Positions 51,942-64,000 of a stretch of DNA of 64,000 nucleotides are shown here, piece after piece. Under the pieces are notes generated by a model. That model did no database searches, was not told the DNA's origin, and saw only the letters and a program-made list of their open reading frames with translations. Every line of letters begins with the position of its first letter. Position 1 is the stretch's first letter. The DNA comes from an uncultured Gemmatimonadales bacterium (GTDB taxonomy: Bacteria; Gemmatimonadota; Gemmatimonadetes; Gemmatimonadales; GWC2-71-9): positions 32,001 through 96,000 of the forward strand of contig CAWHFW010000005.1 of assembly GCA_963828735.1 (NCBI GenBank). The letters run 5' to 3'. The translations under genes and the position numbers were made by a program.

Positions 51942-52199
51942 CTACTGCGACAGCCGCTTCGGCTCTCCGCTATTCGCGTTCGGCGCCTGCTGATTCTGCG
52001 CGTCCGGCTGGCGCGAGGCGAGATTGCGCTGCGCCTCGTCCGGCCCCATGATCGCTTCCGTGGTGTCGGTCAGGCTCCGCTTGAACTCACGAATGCCCTT
52101 GCCGATCGAGGACCCCACCTCCGGCAGCCGCTTGGCGCCGAACAGCAGGAGCACCACCACCATGATCAGCATGATTTCGGTAAAACCGAGGTTGCCCAC
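51942..52199 (-). CDS. tatA: Twin-arginine translocase TatA/TatE
   Basis: LG..E.......LLLFGAKRLPEVGSSIGKGIREFK. Confidence 0.95.
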   Translation of the reverse strand: MGNLGFTEIMLIMVVVLLLFGAKRLPEVGSSIGKGIREFKRSLTDTTEAIMGPDEAQRNLASRQPDAQNQQAPNANSGEPKRLSQ

Positions 52200-57523: not shown

Positions 57524-58372
57524 CTATTTCGAGGCGTGCCGCACCAGGAGCTCGGGGTTGCCCGGGTCGGTCTGATAGGCCCAGTCGAGGATCAGGAAGT
57601 CGTGCCCGACGTGGCTGACGCGGACGGCGCCGTAGCGCTTGAACCCGTCACCGCCGTTCATCTCGAACACGTACCCATATCCCGGAATCGCGAGGATCCC
57701 CGACGTCCGGTACGCGCGGTCGGCCGCGAAGTCGATCGAGGTCAAGTCCTCCACGGGATTGTTCTCGTCGTAGTACTCGACGCCGGTGCCGGCGCGAACC
57801 GGCGTGAGATAGAGATCGCCGATGCCGTCGCGGTCCACGAAGAAGTCGATACTGGCGGCCGAGCCCGCGCGGATCAGGCCCAACTCCGCATCCTGGACGC
57901 CGCCGTCACCGTTGAGGTCGTCCCAGAAGCGGAAGCCGCTGCCCGCATCCTGGAACTCGAACGCGTAGAGGATCGTGTTCCGGGAGTCGGGGCGCGGCGT
58001 GTCGGACCGAACCGGCGATTGACCGCTCTCGGACCCGTCGATGCTCACCGCGGTGACCGCGTAGCAGTGGGGCACGCCGTTGGCAAGCGCGCCGACGATG
58101 AACTCCGGCGCCACGGTGGTTCCCTCGAGCTGCCAGGTCGAGCCGCACTGATTCTGATCGAGATCGTAGGAGGTGCTGTAGACCCGGTAGTTCTGGAAGT
58201 TGCCTGGAGCCGAGACGTACGAGTTGTCGGTCCAGGTGAGGGCGATGGCGCCGTCTAGCGAGGTGCTGGACAGGCTCGCGGGCACATCGGGAGGTGCGCC
58301 GGGCCCGGTCTGGTTGTCCGACGAGCATGCGGCCACCGCGGCGAGGGCGCCGAGCATCCACCAACCACGCAT
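57524..58372 (-). CDS. Putative lipoprotein with fibronectin type III-like domain
   Basis: MRGWWMLGALAAVAA-C lipobox; P..L......I.LTW, YRVY, Y.VTAV..DG.ES..S pattern. Confidence 0.7.
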   Translation of the reverse strand: MRGWWMLGALAAVAACSSDNQTGPGAPPDVPASLSSTSLDGAIALTWTDNSYVSAPGNFQNYRVYSTSYDLDQNQCGSTWQLEGTTVAPEFIVGALANGVPHCYAVTAVSIDGSESGQSPVRSDTPRPDSRNTILYAFEFQDAGSGFRFWDDLNGDGGVQDAELGLIRAGSAASIDFFVDRDGIGDLYLTPVRAGTGVEYYDENNPVEDLTSIDFAADRAYRTSGILAIPGYGYVFEMNGGDGFKRYGAVRVSHVGHDFLILDWAYQTDPGNPELLVRHASK

Positions 58373-58501
58373 AGGTGTCTCCGAAGGGGTTTCGCCTGCG
58401 GATGAGCGAAACGCGTGCCACCGTACCGATGCCATAAACCGTTACTGTACAGCTACTTATCGCGACAAACCGGCAGCCAGCCGTCCCGATCCGGGGACAG
58501 G

Positions 58502-61210
58502 TCAACGCTCGATGGTCGTCTGATCGTAGTCGAACTTGAGCTCCGGCAGGTCGGTCAGATAGATCGTGAAGTAGAAAGAGAAGTTGCCGTTCGGATTCTT
58601 CACGAAGTTGAAAGCCGCCCGCCACTCATGCAGCTCGCGCTCGAGCCGCACTACCTGCGACTCGAACTGCCCGTCGGTGATGTTGTACTGCGACGACCAC
58701 GAGAGGGACCAGAATGGCGTCGGCGAGAAGTTGGTGCTGAAGCCGAGGCTCTGCCGGTCGGGCGTGTCCAGCGGGTTGGGAACGCCGAACGGAGGTCGAG
58801 TCCGCGTGAGCTGATAGTTGAAATTCGAGGTGAATGCGTGGCCCGGCCGCCGAATTGGCACCTGGGTGGTCGAGAAGAATGATCCCGGACGAGTATGCCG
58901 CCCCGATTCCGCCACGTACGATGTCGGCACCTCCTCGGGCCTGCCGCCCTTCGACTTGCCGCCAAGCCCGAAGATGGAGCCGATGGCGCGGAAGGTGTTG
59001 GCCGAGATCGCGAAGCTCGCGCTCACATTCTGGAGGAAGGGCTCGAACTTCGACGTGTCGCTTCCGACGGCGCCCCGCCACAGATCGTGTGTCAGGCTGA
59101 GATTGAATCCCGGCAGCAGGTCGCTCAGGATCGAATTGGTGAGGGACTGCGTGGCCCACCCGGTGAAGCCAGGCTTCTTCGCCTGCTCGAAGTCGTAGCT
59201 GACGCCGCTGGTGCTGATGCTGAGCAATCGAATCTTCCGGCTGTTCTCCGCCGAGGTCGTGTCGCCGCTCTTGGGCAGGAACTTTCCTTCGAACGCCTGG
59301 GAGAGCGAGACGGTCAGGCGCTGCTCGGCGTCGCTCCGGAGCTCAACCGGCTGGCCTGGGAGGGCGATCGCCCGCGCGAATTCCTCGGACACGTCGGCGG
59401 CCGGCTGGTAGCTCCAGGTGACGACCGGCGAAAAGCTGTGGCGGATCCGTGCCAAAGGACCGATGCCTGGATAGAACCCGAACAGCGTCGGCGAGCCCGT
59501 CGCCCCGAACCGGAATCGCTTGCCCTGCTGCACCCAGGTGCCGTTCGTGTTGCGGTTCCGGATCGCGAATGTGCCGGTCGTAGCGTTCCCCACCCCGACC
59601 ACAGGCTGAATCTTCCAGCTGCCCCGGAAGAGAACGGGCAGATTGATGCCCGTGTCCCAGTCGAGCGAGCTCTGGAAGTCGCTCAAGAAGGTCCGCTGGA
59701 CGGTGATGCTGTCCGTGGGATCGGGAGTGGCAGGGTTGTCGGTGCGGAACGTCACTACCTCCTGGCCCTCGGACGACTGGTCGGTCACCTGGAGCGAGTT
59801 CGACCAGTTGAACCCGCCGAGTCGGATCGGCGTGTCGAAGCTCAGCGCCGTGATGCGAGAGCTCGCGTCCGTCGCGACCGTGTCGAAGAGCCCGCCCGGG
59901 AGCGCCAGCAGCACCGTGTCCCTGCCCGGGTTGCTGGTCGTGTTGTTCGTGAAGCTCAGCCCCGGCGACCACGAGATGTTCGAGCCCAGCGCGATCGGCA
60001 CGGGCGAGAGAGTCACGGCAGGCAGCAGCTGCTGGACGCTGCCGTCGGTGAGACTCTGGCGCCGGTTGCCGCCCAGCGTCAGGGTGCCCCATGGCAGCCG
60101 CTTCGAATAGTTGAGCGAGCTCGTGATCTGCTGCGTGTTCTGCAGGGGGTCGATCGCGTTCCCCTGGATGACGGTGGTGTTGCTCGCGTAGTTGATGTTG
60201 AAGTTGAGCGACGTGGTCAGATTGAACTGCTGGCTGTGATCCCACCGGAAGCTCAGCCCGGATCCACCTTCGGTCTGCCGCTGCTCGTTGATGCCGATCG
60301 ATCCGCTCATGAACCGGTTCAGCCATCGATATTGGCCGCTCACGCCGTACTGGACGTACCGGTTGGCGAACCAGTCGAGCCGCCCCGTCAGATCCAGATA
60401 GTCGCTTGGCGCCCAGTAGTAGCCGAGGTTGGTGATCTGACGGTTGTAGTTGTCCGTGGGCCGGATCAGGTCGTTGATGCCGAACTGCGGCACCAGGATG
60501 CCCGAGTGCCGCCCCGGCCGCACGTCCTGGAAGATGAACGGCAGCCAGAGGATCGGCACGTCGCGCACGTAGAGAACCACGGGTCGCGCGACCAGGACGT
60601 TTTTCGAGATCCACTTCATCTCGCGCGCGCTGAAGTGGTAGTGCGGCGTGGGCAGATCGCAGCTCGTGATCTGGCTCGAGCCCGCGTAGATGCGGCTCGA
60701 GCTCGAATCCTGGGCGACGTTCCCGCGGAGGAACCAGACGGTCGAGCCTTCGGTGAAGTTGGTCAGCGCCTCGTCCACGATGCCGCGGCGCTTGCAGGTG
60801 TCGTAGCGAATTCCCTCACCGACGAGCACCTGACCGCGGTCGAACAGATGGGGGTTCCCGTCGGCGTCGAGCAGGCAGCTGTCGCGTTGATACCGGATCG
60901 TGTCTGCCTCGAGCAGCGCTCCCTGCCGTTCGGTCAGCGCCTCGCCTTGCAGCAGCACGCGCTCGTCCTTGATGAAGACGGTCGCGGAATCGGCGCGATA
61001 TCGTGTCGACTGATAGCCGTGGCGCGCCTTGAGGTCCGTGAGGACGGAATCATCCGGCGCGAAGCTCCGGCTCGGTCCCGTGGGGATGCCGAGCCGCCCC
61101 GCGGTCGCGCTGTCCAGCGACTGACCCGGCTTTTTCCGGCGGAGGGAGTCCTGAAGCGAATCCGGCACGGCCTGCCGCACCTGCCCCGGCCTCGGCTTTG
61201 CCGGCACTTG
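58502..61210 (-). other. lptD: LptD moiety of the fusion (predicted mature chain from Q269)
   Basis: OstA-like region (YRADS, L.G.A, LEADTIRY), TSCDLPTPHYHF, VLYVRDVPILWLPF, SGILVPQFG, GYYWA, amphipathic beta strands ending RELHEW..F.F..GNFSFYF.I.L. Confidence 0.82.
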
Positions 61211-62014
61211 GGCCTCGGCGCGCGGGACGCCGAAGCCGAGCCCCAGCAGCACCAGTGCCGCCGTGACGGCCGCCTTTCGGCGGCGGCGATGGATGATGAC
61301 CGCACCCGCGTATCCCACCTCGTAGAGGAGGAGCAGCGGAATGGTCATCATGATCATGCTGACGAGATCGGTCCCAGGCGACAGAATGGCCCCGGCGATG
61401 AACGCGGCGACGACCGCGAAGCGCCGGAACCGCGCCAGGTCGGCCGGGCTGATCACCTCGAGCCAGGCCAGGATCACGATGACGAGCGGCAGCTCGAAGG
61501 AGAGCCCGAGGGCCAGCACCACCTGAAGGACGAAGTCGAAGTATGCGTCGTAGGTGATGAATGGCTGGATCGCTTCGGTCTGGAAGCTGAACAGCACGCG
61601 AAGCGCCTGCGGCACGACGAAGACGTAGGCGGCGCCCGCCCCGATGAGAAACAGCACCAGGCCCACGAACAGCGCCGGCACCAGCGCGCGCTTCTCGCGG
61701 GAGTAGAGCGCAGGCGCGAGGAATGCCCACAGCTGCCACAGGATCACCGGCGACGCGAGCACGAGGCCGACGATAAAGCCGAGCTTGAAGACGATCATCA
61801 CCGGCTCGGTGGGGCTCGTGACGATGAGCTTTCCACCTGCGCCGGTGAGATACGGGGCGATCGGCTGCTTGAGGAGATTGACGAGCTGGAACCGCTGGAC
61901 CAGCCACAGGCCGAGCCCGAAGCCGACCACGATGGCGGCGAGCGAGCGGAGAATGCGCCAACGAAGCTCCTCGAGATGATCGAGGAAGGGCATCTCCCCG
62001 GGGGAGCCGGTCAT
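58502..62014 (-). CDS. tatC: TatC fused in frame to LPS-assembly protein LptD (1170 aa)
   Basis: aa 1-242 TatC (EMPFLDHLEELR, SPTEP, QLWAFLAPALY..EK, GLSFELP, AILSPG.D, PL.LLYE), a signal-like linker, then LptD. Confidence 0.9.
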   Translation of the reverse strand: MTGSPGEMPFLDHLEELRWRILRSLAAIVVGFGLGLWLVQRFQLVNLLKQPIAPYLTGAGGKLIVTSPTEPVMIVFKLGFIVGLVLASPVILWQLWAFLAPALYSREKRALVPALFVGLVLFLIGAGAAYVFVVPQALRVLFSFQTEAIQPFITYDAYFDFVLQVVLALGLSFELPLVIVILAWLEVISPADLARFRRFAVVAAFIAGAILSPGTDLVSMIMMTIPLLLLYEVGYAGAVIIHRRRRKAAVTAALVLLGLGFGVPRAEAQVPAKPRPGQVRQAVPDSLQDSLRRKKPGQSLDSATAGRLGIPTGPSRSFAPDDSVLTDLKARHGYQSTRYRADSATVFIKDERVLLQGEALTERQGALLEADTIRYQRDSCLLDADGNPHLFDRGQVLVGEGIRYDTCKRRGIVDEALTNFTEGSTVWFLRGNVAQDSSSSRIYAGSSQITSCDLPTPHYHFSAREMKWISKNVLVARPVVLYVRDVPILWLPFIFQDVRPGRHSGILVPQFGINDLIRPTDNYNRQITNLGYYWAPSDYLDLTGRLDWFANRYVQYGVSGQYRWLNRFMSGSIGINEQRQTEGGSGLSFRWDHSQQFNLTTSLNFNINYASNTTVIQGNAIDPLQNTQQITSSLNYSKRLPWGTLTLGGNRRQSLTDGSVQQLLPAVTLSPVPIALGSNISWSPGLSFTNNTTSNPGRDTVLLALPGGLFDTVATDASSRITALSFDTPIRLGGFNWSNSLQVTDQSSEGQEVVTFRTDNPATPDPTDSITVQRTFLSDFQSSLDWDTGINLPVLFRGSWKIQPVVGVGNATTGTFAIRNRNTNGTWVQQGKRFRFGATGSPTLFGFYPGIGPLARIRHSFSPVVTWSYQPAADVSEEFARAIALPGQPVELRSDAEQRLTVSLSQAFEGKFLPKSGDTTSAENSRKIRLLSISTSGVSYDFEQAKKPGFTGWATQSLTNSILSDLLPGFNLSLTHDLWRGAVGSDTSKFEPFLQNVSASFAISANTFRAIGSIFGLGGKSKGGRPEEVPTSYVAESGRHTRPGSFFSTTQVPIRRPGHAFTSNFNYQLTRTRPPFGVPNPLDTPDRQSLGFSTNFSPTPFWSLSWSSQYNITDGQFESQVVRLERELHEWRAAFNFVKNPNGNFSFYFTIYLTDLPELKFDYDQTTIER

Positions 62015-62033
62015 GCGCAGGCCGCGCCCGGGC

Positions 62034-62843
62034 TTAGCGCCCGAGCGCCTTCAGGCGATCACGTGCCAGGGCGGCCTCGTCCGACTGCGGGTACTTCTGC
62101 ACCACGCGCTGGTAGGCATCCTTGGCCTTGGCGTTGTCCTTCCGCCGCTCGGCGAGAAGGCCCAGGTTGTACAGCGCCGACGGGGCACGGGCCGAGGTGG
62201 GATACTTGTCCACCACCTGCGAGTAGTATTCCGCGGCCGAGTCCGGGTTCTCGGCCGAAAAGCTCTGGCCGATGAAGTAGAGCGCGTCCGGCGCGCGCGA
62301 GCTCGTGGGGTAGGTCCGGAGCAGCTCGCGGAGGCCCAGCCGTGCGGTGCCGGTGCTGCCCCGCCGGAGCTGTGCCAACGAGGCCTCGTACATCGCGTCG
62401 GCGGAGGCGGACGACTGGGCGGCGGGCTGCGCGGTATCTCCGGGCGCGGTCGGCCCCGGTGCCCCGGTCGGACCGCCATCGTTGTTCTGCGCGGCCCGGG
62501 CCTCCAGCTGCGTCCTGAGCTCGCTCAAGCGCTGCTGGCTCTGCCCGGTGAGCTCCTGCAGCTGCACCAGCTGCTGCTGGATGTTGTAGAGGTCCTGGGA
62601 TACGTCGCCCTTGACCTGCGCCACCGTATGGCGGGTCACGGTCAGCGAGTCCATGATCTGGCGCTGCATCTGAATCACCTCACCGAGCTGCGCGGCCCGT
62701 GTGGAGTCGCGACGCAGCGTCTCGGCCCGGAGCAGCGCCACCTCGCCCTGCACCATCTGGATGTCGCCCTTGGAGACGCAGCCCGACAGCCCTCCCGCGG
62801 CCGAGGCGGCCGCGAGCAGGGTGGCGGTCAGGCGTCGAGACAT
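62034..62843 (-). CDS. cpoB: Tol-Pal-associated protein CpoB/YbgF
   Basis: Lipobox LSG-C, coiled coil, TPRs (YPTS..APDALY); directly downstream of pal. Alternative GTG start at 62852. Confidence 0.88.
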   Translation of the reverse strand: MSRRLTATLLAAASAAGGLSGCVSKGDIQMVQGEVALLRAETLRRDSTRAAQLGEVIQMQRQIMDSLTVTRHTVAQVKGDVSQDLYNIQQQLVQLQELTGQSQQRLSELRTQLEARAAQNNDGGPTGAPGPTAPGDTAQPAAQSSASADAMYEASLAQLRRGSTGTARLGLRELLRTYPTSSRAPDALYFIGQSFSAENPDSAAEYYSQVVDKYPTSARAPSALYNLGLLAERRKDNAKAKDAYQRVVQKYPQSDEAALARDRLKALGR

Positions 62844-62848
62844 GGAGC

Positions 62849-63424
62849 TCACTGCGGGGCGACGAGGTGGTCCCCGCCGGCCGTGACCTGGAACTCGTCG
62901 CGGCGATTCTGCGCGTAGGACGTTTCGTCGTGACCCGGGTTGAGGGGACGCTCCTCACCGAAGGAGACGACGTCCATCCGGCTGGCGTCGATGCCCTTGT
63001 TCTCGAGGTAACGCTTGGCCGCCGCGGCGCGACGGTTGCCGAGGGCAAGGTTGTACTCGTCCGAGCCGCGTTCGTCCGCGTGGCCGCTGATCTGGATCTT
63101 CACGCTCGGGTTGGCGCCGAGGATGGACGCCTTCCGATCGAGCGTGGCCTGATCGGTTGACCGGATGACCGACTGGTCGTACTCGAAGTTGATCATAGCC
63201 GCCAGATCCGCCGCGACCGCCTTCGCGCGCTCGGCCGCCGCGTTGGCCGCCGCGATCGAATCCGCGCGCCGCTGCTCGGCGCTGTTATCGACCGGCGCCG
63301 GCTCGGGCGCGGGCGGGGCCTGGGTCGTAGTGTCGGGGGCAGGCTGTTCGGGCGCGGGCTTCCCACCGCAAGCGGTAGCGAGCCCGGCGGTGGCCAGGAC
63401 CAACAACAGGGTAGTGGCGCGCAT
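62849..63424 (-). CDS. pal: Peptidoglycan-associated lipoprotein Pal
   Basis: Lipobox ATA-C, F.YD.S, GHADERGSDEYNLALGNRRA, SFGEERP, NRR. Confidence 0.96.
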   Translation of the reverse strand: MRATTLLLVLATAGLATACGGKPAPEQPAPDTTTQAPPAPEPAPVDNSAEQRRADSIAAANAAAERAKAVAADLAAMINFEYDQSVIRSTDQATLDRKASILGANPSVKIQISGHADERGSDEYNLALGNRRAAAAKRYLENKGIDASRMDVVSFGEERPLNPGHDETSYAQNRRDEFQVTAGGDHLVAPQ

Positions 63425-63443: not shown

Positions 63444-64000
63444 TTAGGGGGTGACCGCGGTCCGACTCAGGCGGCGGGACCACGCAGGGAGCCGCGCCGC
63501 GCCAGGTGATCTCAGCTGGCGAACGCGGCCCGTCTCGACGTCAATGACCCAGAGCTGTCGGGCGCCGCTCCGGTCAGAGACGAAGGTGATATGACGGCCG
63601 TCGGGCGCCCAGGTGGGGTCCTCGTTGCGGCCGGACGACGTGAGCTGCCGGACCCGTCGCCCCGCCACGTCGACGAGGAACAGCTGGGGGCTGCCGGTGA
63701 CCTCACGATGGAACACGACGTTGGCCCCGTCGGGCGACCACTCCGGGGCGTTGGAGCTGCCCGTCGCGCCGAAATCGAACGGCGCGAGCAGTTCCTGATC
63801 GGTCCCGTCGGCGGCCATGACGTAGACTTGGGGCGGTCCCGCCCGCGTGGATACGAACGCGATGCGGCGGCCATCTGGAGAAAACGTTGGAGATAAGTTG
63901 TCCGCGTAGCGTCCCACGGTCAAGCGTTGCGCGCAGCAGCGATCGGCGATGTTCGCGAGGAAAATATCCGTCCCGGTCTCGTCCGAGTGCGCGTACGCGA
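63444..64000 (-). CDS. tolB: TolB (C-terminal part; 5' end outside the window)
   Basis: PD40 repeats PTFSPDG, PEWSPDG, PTWAPDG, PAWS; upstream of pal. Confidence 0.92.
   Translation of the reverse strand, partial: AYAHSDETGTDIFLANIADRCCAQRLTVGRYADNLSPTFSPDGRRIAFVSTRAGPPQVYVMAADGTDQELLAPFDFGATGSSNAPEWSPDGANVVFHREVTGSPQLFLVDVAGRRVRQLTSSGRNEDPTWAPDGRHITFVSDRSGARQLWVIDVETGRVRQLRSPGAARLPAWSRRLSRTAVTP

Follow-up and report, generated by a model that had tools for sequence, protein, structure and literature searches.

A TatC-LptD fusion in Gemmatimonadota: one uninterrupted reading frame with a predicted signal peptide at its joint

In a 64,000-nucleotide stretch of DNA (the window) from an uncultured Gemmatimonadales bacterium of soil, tatC and an lptD-like gene form one open reading frame (ORF), which runs on the minus strand (58502..62014) from an ATG through 1170 codons to a single stop. 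That this fused ORF is real could be confirmed. We read its product, with a probability of roughly 0.7, as a natural polyprotein that signal peptidase I would cut into a TatC carrying a seventh helix and a released mature LptD. An earlier note, made from the sequence of the window, had proposed this reading, and it is supported in that the sequence-level predictions open to testing all held.

The fused gene and its two halves

The earlier note described one 1170-codon ORF with a complete TatC followed by an LptD-like chain, and both the translation and the profile searches bear this out. PF00902 (TatC) matches residues 12-226 along its whole length (profile positions 1-208 of 208, E 4.7e-62, 209.9 bits against a cut-off of 25.1), and the NCBIfam model tatC (TIGR00945) scores 206.7 bits, above the equivalog cut-off of 132.7. 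PF19838 (LptD_2) matches residues 475-943 (profile positions 2-431 of 464, E 5.9e-35, 121.3 bits against a cut-off of 22.5), so the scan for TatC and LptD domains suggested at the time returned both above their cut-offs. The coordinates given then for the basic cluster RRRRK (residues 243-247, 61288-61274) and for the PRAEA|Q junction (61211/61210) were also exact. As 928 residues follow the TatC moiety, the ORF encodes no free TatC of about 250 residues with a cytoplasmic C-terminus.

A profile search of the genome, which is 97.5% complete, placed its sole TatC match and its sole LptD_2 match in this ORF, and found neither a second TatC elsewhere nor a classical LptD (PF04453). The idea that the fusion is dispensable thanks to another TatC or a classical LptD was rejected on this ground. 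Since the genome has no other TatC and no other LptD-like gene, both halves of the ORF must work.

There is next to no chance that a sequencing or assembly frameshift joined two separate genes here or that the TatC half is a dead remnant. Errors of this kind are possible in such data, since the related loci L097, L117 and L118, all from metagenome-assembled genomes (MAGs), show frame errors at or near the joint. In the window, however, two DNA runs, each from a different study, have assembly contigs across the joint (X4 record 22, 60973-61347; X7 record 30, 61159-61470) with 0 differences and 0 gaps, and the comparison of these contigs lists no insertion or deletion within the fused ORF. The stop or indel for which the earlier note wanted the joint checked is therefore seen in neither of these independent runs. 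The same architecture recurs in hundreds of independent assemblies; both Pfam domains are present in all 120 of the listed clusters at 90% identity (71-86% identical to the query, 1138-1183 residues), and a library at 50% identity holds six full-length fused representatives (36-56% identity). With a TatC half that beats the equivalog cut-off and is the only one of its genome, an assembly error at the joint can be rejected and an artefact is refuted for the window. Opposite the fused gene lies an antisense ORF of 1126 codons (window 58895-62275, plus strand), the usual mirror frame of high-GC coding sequence.

The structure of the fused protein was predicted with AlphaFold2 from a 110-row alignment, giving a mean predicted local distance difference test score (pLDDT) of 84.6 and a predicted template modelling score of 0.63. 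The N-terminal half of the model has the six-helix fold of TatC, matching 4b4a, 4hts and 9e01 (E 1.8e-12 to 7e-11, TM-score on target 0.75-0.79). A Foldseek search of the PDB with the whole model returned LptD chains as all of its top 16 matches (E 1.2e-26 to 5.8e-13, TM-score on target 0.46-0.58, 11-12% identity), and the TatC structures come after them in the list (4b4a, E 1.8e-12, TM-score on target 0.78, 41% identity). Modelling of the C-terminal part as an LptD barrel had been named in the earlier note as a test of its proposal, and the outcome agrees with it. The alignments reach full-length LptD chains including their N-terminal domain (e.g., 8h1s_A and 5iv9_A), which corresponds to the predicted jellyroll, and the NCBIfam LptD model weakly matches residues 372-515. 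Between the two folded halves pLDDT drops below 50 at residues 259-297, beginning about ten residues before the predicted cut, and two short helices follow.

The linker and the making of two proteins

Sec signal peptides insert with their basic n-region inside, and signal peptidase I cuts after small residues at positions -3 and -1, on the outer face of the membrane. By simple rules, the linker contains the parts of such a signal: a positive n-region (RRRRK), an uncharged hydrophobic h-region of 16 residues, and the small residues A266-x-A268. The signal begins at residue 243, behind six transmembrane helices, and not at the N-terminus of the precursor. Among 18 fused proteins (46-84% identity) R243 and Q269 are invariant and R244 and A268 nearly so, with the h-region drifting between them. 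In DNA, 59 fused junctions were compared, which were chosen as fused and are mutually related: the n-region has a median net charge of +5; position -1 is Ala, Gly or Ser in 57 of the 59 (A49/G6/S2), the two exceptions being cases in which the anchor had taken an earlier Q; position -3 is A27/L25/V3/S2/G1/T1 over all 59; and position -2 is hypervariable, with 13 different residues. Judged from the sequences, such conservation is what marks a functional site for signal peptidase I, as opposed to a specific helix-helix contact or a mere anchor.

Stand-alone LptD_2 proteins offer a direct comparison. Of 56 representatives (880-1110 residues), 55 have an N-terminal hydrophobic stretch, the remaining one being a TatC-started fragment, and 52 have small-x-small before Q. 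In phmmer alignments residues 5-25 of many stand-alone proteins fall on residues 243-255 of the query; the MAFFT alignment of 110 rows did not set the stand-alone signal peptides under the linker, and the phmmer coordinates and rule-based statistics were used in its place. The h-region has a median length of 16-17 residues in fused linkers versus 15 in stand-alone signals, peak hydrophobicity is 2.82 versus 2.80, the distance from the end of the h-region to Q is 4 in both, and position -1 is Ala, Gly or Ser in 123 of 127 fused linkers versus 53 of 55 stand-alone signals. By length, hydrophobicity, distance to Q and the -1 residue, the putative signals in the fused linkers cannot be distinguished from stand-alone LptD_2 signals. 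In relatives in which the two genes are split, TatC stops after a basic cluster, and a classical signal peptide with small-x-small before Q opens LptD, exactly at the position of the linker, as expected if the linker is signal-like, which the earlier note had claimed.

Beyond the fusion, Q is the commonest residue after A-x-A in 245 signal-peptide-like ORFs of the genome collected with a crude and noisy regular expression (21%, versus 3.4% elsewhere in the same proteins), an enrichment at +1 that resembles a weak form of the Bacteroidetes Q-rule. The paper on this rule calls it Bacteroidetes-specific and makes no mention of Gemmatimonadetes (PMC5837995). Glutaminyl cyclase (PF05096) was not found by the profile search of the genome, and for these two reasons a Bacteroidetes-type Q-rule was dropped as the explanation of the +1 Q.

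TatC proteins have six helices with both ends in the cytoplasm. We propose that a frame change removed the tatC stop from a pair of adjacent ancestral genes, in which this stop often overlapped the start of lptD as NTGA, and that the cytoplasmic C-terminal tail of TatC would now lead straight into the signal peptide that directs the LptD-like precursor to Sec. One chain of 1170 residues would be translated and the six TatC helices would insert cotranslationally, leaving both of their ends cytoplasmic. RRRRK would then stay in the cytoplasm while the 16-residue h-region would enter the Sec channel, forming a seventh helix oriented in-to-out, and about 900 residues of LptD would be threaded into the periplasm. 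There the single type I signal peptidase of the genome would cut after A266-E267-A268, leaving a TatC of 268 residues with the signal peptide as a covalent seventh helix and a mature LptD of 902 residues starting at Q269, which would follow the ordinary route to the outer membrane. The seventh-helix wording of the earlier note implied, without stating it, that the signal peptide stays covalently on TatC. Because cleavage would restore two normal proteins, loss of the tatC stop would be cheap and the fusion is probably near-neutral, which fits the repeated switching between fused and split states and the presence of both within single genera.

Several points weigh against this reading. Contigs assembled from two RNA-library runs cover both halves of the ORF, and none of these contigs crosses the joint (61194-61320), so they lend no support to a continuous transcript over it. 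The cut site was placed by our own simple rules and by comparison with the stand-alone proteins, and cleavage at A268|Q269 is something we infer. Since the 59 junctions were selected and are related as described, counts over them are not independent. In the AlphaFold2 model helix 6 runs on into the linker without a break or hairpin (residues 217-258), and the cytoplasmic loop between the two would be only about 5 residues long in this genome. The assignment of the C-terminal half to LptD comes from the LptD_2 profile and the predicted fold: classical LptD, LptE and LptD_N profiles were without a match, PF04453 being absent from both protein and genome, and the NCBIfam models PRK03761 and PRK04423 gave 21.9-23.1 bits against cut-offs of 683-944. 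Finally, an ATG at the boundary of the n- and h-regions is kept in 10 of the 59 junctions, in some with an upstream sequence resembling a Shine-Dalgarno (SD) site, and separate initiation may coexist in the lineages that keep it.

These ATGs, probably the old lptD start, bear on the possibility that the ORF is continuous and LptD nevertheless arises mainly from an internal start, either the GTG of V233 or the ATGs of M220-M223, the read-through product being minor or degraded. We consider this unlikely. From R243 as far as the opening residues of the h-region, the window has no ATG, GTG or TTG, and to that extent the claim of the earlier note that the linker has no independent start stands; it does not extend to the in-frame codons nearby, namely ATG at M220, M222 and M223 and GTG at V233, all inside TatC helix 6 and upstream of the linker, and GTG at V255 within the h-region. 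The lack of an SD site excludes nothing in this organism, as the tatC start itself has no obvious one. From the first basic residue to the fourth position after the start of the h-region, however, 35 of the 59 junctions have no start codon whatsoever, and 14 have only GTG or TTG, the other 10 being those with ATG. Nor is a GTG conserved after the YE motif of helix 6: the residue there is not Val in 27 junctions, and GTG is used in 19 of the 32 Val cases (19 of all 59), where the background is 53%, so a conserved internal GTG start was rejected as background codon use. With most junctions devoid of an n-region start and the YE-motif GTG not conserved, internal initiation cannot be the general route to LptD. 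Moreover, a precursor begun in helix 6 would be atypical in carrying a further hydrophobic segment ahead of the signal, and ribosomes coming from the tatC start are unhindered, so the full-length chain would be made anyway and have to be dealt with.

The linker could also be a permanent seventh helix that is never cut, holding LptD to TatC through a disordered segment of about 70 residues and thereby bridging the inner and outer membranes or keeping LptD at Tat sites. The length of residues 269-336 and the disorder predicted at 259-297 make a span across the periplasm physically conceivable, and the fusion is kept in most of the family. Yet an anchor needs none of the small residues at -3 and -1, the Pro of the c-region or the invariant +1 Q, all kept as in stand-alone signals; the h-region drifts freely in sequence, which speaks against specific packing with TatC; and alternation of fused and split states within genera is hard to square with a new tethered function. 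Such a tether seems to us very improbable. That the fusion is not neutral but under selection is likewise improbable. Insertion of TatC targeted by the signal recognition particle might bring the LptD precursor to Sec without a cytosolic chaperone, the fusion might fix the output of the two proteins at 1:1, and the retained signal peptide might serve as a functional seventh helix of TatC that alters assembly of the Tat receptor; the LptD precursor is giant and aggregation-prone, and the SecB profile had no match in the genome. In its boldest form this idea would have cleavage partial or regulated, with some molecules coupling Tat sites to the sites of lipopolysaccharide (LPS) insertion in the outer membrane.

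Fused and split forms across the phylum

The distribution of the fusion was followed in an even sample of 121 genomes of the family and in a phylum-wide sample of 201 genomes. A TatC match is present in 118 of the 121 family genomes, and in 90 of the 121 the TatC frame is at least 1100 residues long; about 10 more TatC frames (539-1082 residues) end at contig ends, and 14 genomes have only short frames. The fusion is thus a family trait, kept in most of the family. The expectation of the earlier note that relatives keep the fusion with a conserved linker of n-, h- and c-regions holds in this sense, but close relatives are not uniformly fused, with about 14 of the 121 genomes looking split. A search with the 18-row alignment gave 61 related loci, all of them labelled as MAGs, and no cultured carrier of the fusion was among them.

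Across the phylum sample TatC was found in 197 genomes and LptD_2 in 198. Outside the family, TatC frames are mostly 254-350 residues long, with lptD_2 just downstream on the same strand and contig. We fetched 30 loci from this sample, and lptD directly follows tatC on the same strand in 27, a contig edge ending the other 3. The two genes are fused at 8 of these 27 loci and split at 19, where the downstream gene is visible; at 7 of the 19 split loci an in-frame NTG of lptD overlaps the tatC stop in an NTGA.

On a quick maximum-likelihood tree of 90 TatC sequences, the state must have switched at least 5 times, and well-supported branches demand 4 of these switches. Sixty TatCs of the family form a clade in which 57 rows are fused and split forms are nested inside two genera; fused forms separate from these were found in one other family of the order and in a different order. 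Most rows of the tree were selected as fused, and it therefore shows clustering and lability, not frequencies. The tallies and the tree include five genomes flagged as unpublished (G057, G097, G157, G182 and G209), which supply a single fused junction among the 59 and a single split locus; every conclusion holds without them. The existence of split genomes in the family and the repeated changes of state suggest that the cell tolerates the fusion but does not need it.

In several genomes there is an additional stand-alone TatC, which clusters with the TatC type of the neighbouring family: G045 (L053, L087), G047 (L021, L088), G025 (L085, L086), G066 (L084) and G172 (L090). G045 and G047 each have a fused copy plus a stand-alone copy. 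In G025 the 1.7 kb upstream of the LptD_2 match gave no TatC hit, and a different contig holds the only TatC, which suggests that the TatC half of the fused gene was lost once a second TatC copy existed.

In one MAG two inverted copies of the fused gene (L097 and L098) lie on the same contig, about 1.4 kb apart on opposite strands; L097 has a frame break inside TatC, and the pair reflects either a duplication of which one copy is decaying or a fault of the assembly. In two close relatives, L117 and L118 (64% and 53% identity over the best segment), the frame is lost right after the basic cluster and an Arg-rich wrong frame is read. The apparent cause is a single-base indel among the consecutive arginine codons of the joint, whether genuine or introduced by sequencing, and errors of this sort may account for a few of the "split" calls made in MAGs.

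Genomic setting, known relatives and implications

The fused ORF was said in the earlier note to lie downstream of tolB-pal-cpoB, and a TolB-like fragment with PD40 repeats, a Pal-like gene and a CpoB-like gene are indeed found there (Table 1). Downstream, the order is a lipoprotein-like gene, an aromatic amino-acid lyase, a TPR protein, a polyprenyl synthase, a DUF4321 gene and tatA. The lipoprotein-like gene had no Pfam match; its product of about 280-300 residues has relatives in 37 of 41 family genomes, and wherever the TatC coordinates are known these relatives lie about 3.5-4 kb downstream on the same strand, right after lptD. As the genome has no LptE profile match, we speculate that this gene is a candidate outer-membrane partner of LptD_2.

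The sole TatA/B/E match of the genome is this tatA (C5:84056-84190), so a TatA-family partner of TatC is encoded. LpxC, the criterion used for synthesis of lipid A and LPS, is present (PF03331, E 1.2e-82), and signal peptidase I has one match (PF10502, E 1.8e-46). In the same profile search LptE (PF04390), LptD_N/OstA (PF03968) and SecB (PF02556) gave no match, and the periplasmic bridge parts of the Lpt pathway are either very divergent or covered by models outside the search.

Table 1. Features of the fused gene and of its neighbourhood (window coordinates)
Feature	Coordinates	Strand	Basis and remarks
Fused ORF tatC-lptD	58502..62014	-	ORF listing, translation; genome's only TatC and LptD_2 match
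TatC moiety, aa 1-242, six helices	61289..62014	-	PF00902, TIGR00945, AlphaFold2 match to 4b4a
Basic cluster RRRRK, aa 243-247	61274..61288	-	End of TatC cytoplasmic tail and n-region of putative internal signal peptide
h-region AAVTAALVLLGLGFGV, aa 248-263, uncharged, would-be seventh helix	61226..61273	-	Translation; rule-based junction statistics
c-region PRAEA, aa 264-268	61211..61225	-	Predicted signal peptidase I site A266-E267-A268 | Q269, cut nt 61211/61210
Predicted mature LptD N-terminus, aa 269-336, mostly disordered, Pro/Arg-rich	61007..61210	-	AlphaFold2; sequence variable among relatives
Predicted periplasmic beta-jellyroll-like domain, aa 337-500	60515..61006	-	AlphaFold2 strands E337-E497; Foldseek; weak NCBIfam LptD match
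Predicted outer-membrane beta-barrel, aa 526-1167	58514..60439	-	PF19838 (aa 475-943); AlphaFold2 strands E526-E1167, high pLDDT
CpoB/YbgF-like TPR gene, upstream	62034..62852	-	TPR_6 2e-18, YfiO 2.1e-6; stop 19 nt from tatC ATG
Pal-like OmpA-family gene	62849..63424	-	PF00691 2.1e-20
TolB-like gene, C-terminal part, runs off window	63444..63998	-	PD40 repeats 4.6e-28
Lipoprotein-like gene, downstream	57524..58435	-	Lipobox-like motif LAAVAAC; family-conserved beside lptD
tatA	51942..52199	-	PF02416 3.6e-18; about 6 kb downstream

The closest relatives of the fusion are the split tatC-lptD_2 pairs of other Gemmatimonadota (e.g., loci L012, L016, L025 and L026; proteins P0139-P0246). They share with it the same families, order and strand and the same signal peptide with small-x-small before Q, at the same place relative to mature LptD. 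They differ in that a stop ends TatC and a separate, often overlapping start begins LptD, whereas here the frame is continuous and the signal internal, and would remain on TatC after cleavage.

Each half also departs from the proteins known for its family. TatC of Aquifex aeolicus (4b4a) and of the Escherichia coli TatBC complex (9dzz, 9e01) match the N-terminal half at full length (TM-score 0.73-0.79 on target, 31-41% identity), but known TatCs have about 230-260 residues, six helices and a free cytoplasmic C-terminus, whereas here a seventh hydrophobic segment and another 900 residues follow. Proteobacterial LptD (PF04453; LptDE complexes 8h1s, 4q35 and 5iv9) has the same plan of an N-terminal beta-jellyroll and a very large C-terminal barrel, but at 11-12% identity, with no match to PF04453 and no LptE in this genome, and the half described here is a member of LptD_2 (PF19838).

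The principle of an internal signal peptide may have a precedent. The cytochrome b/c1 precursor FbcH of Bradyrhizobium japonicum, reportedly described by Thony-Meyer and co-workers in about 1989-1991 and not confirmed in the literature searched, is said to be a single ORF in which a polytopic inner-membrane protein ending in the cytoplasm is followed by an internal signal peptide and an exported C-terminal protein that is released after translation. The fused ORF is likewise made of a polytopic protein, with the cytoplasmic C-terminus general for TatC, a putative signal peptide and an exported protein. The products of FbcH are reportedly subunits of one complex in one membrane, whereas those of the fusion would belong to two machines, Tat and Lpt, in two membranes; and cleavage is said to have been shown for FbcH, whereas here we infer it.

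No description of a TatC-LptD fusion was found among the titles and abstract openings of the literature searched. A survey of TatC diversity from 2013 included one Gemmatimonadetes genome, and a look-up of the terms fusion, fused, LptD and OstA gave no occurrence in it (PMC3827258). The statement of the earlier note that no case is characterised therefore holds for TatC-LptD as far as this literature goes, but not necessarily for the principle, given the reported example of FbcH. The fusion is real, widespread and apparently undescribed and, if cleaved, mechanistically ordinary.

For annotation the consequence is immediate. The sources name these proteins of about 1170 residues, where they name them at all, as TatC only ("twin-arginine translocase subunit TatC", "Tat protein translocase TatC" or "sec-independent protein translocase protein TatC"). 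Automated surveys can accordingly score LptD as missing in most genomes of the family; in the present genome the sole LptD-like gene is hidden in the fused ORF.

For the mechanism of export, the fusion is a natural and widespread test case of a signal peptide acting internally, behind six transmembrane helices. If our reading is true, one translation event would yield proteins for two different membranes and TatC would exist in a seven-helix form, of which there is none among the solved TatC structures matched by Foldseek (no wider search was made). For evolution, the alternation of fused and split states inside genera is a clear example of the way in which overlapping, translationally coupled genes can fuse and split again cheaply when a processing site sits at their joint.

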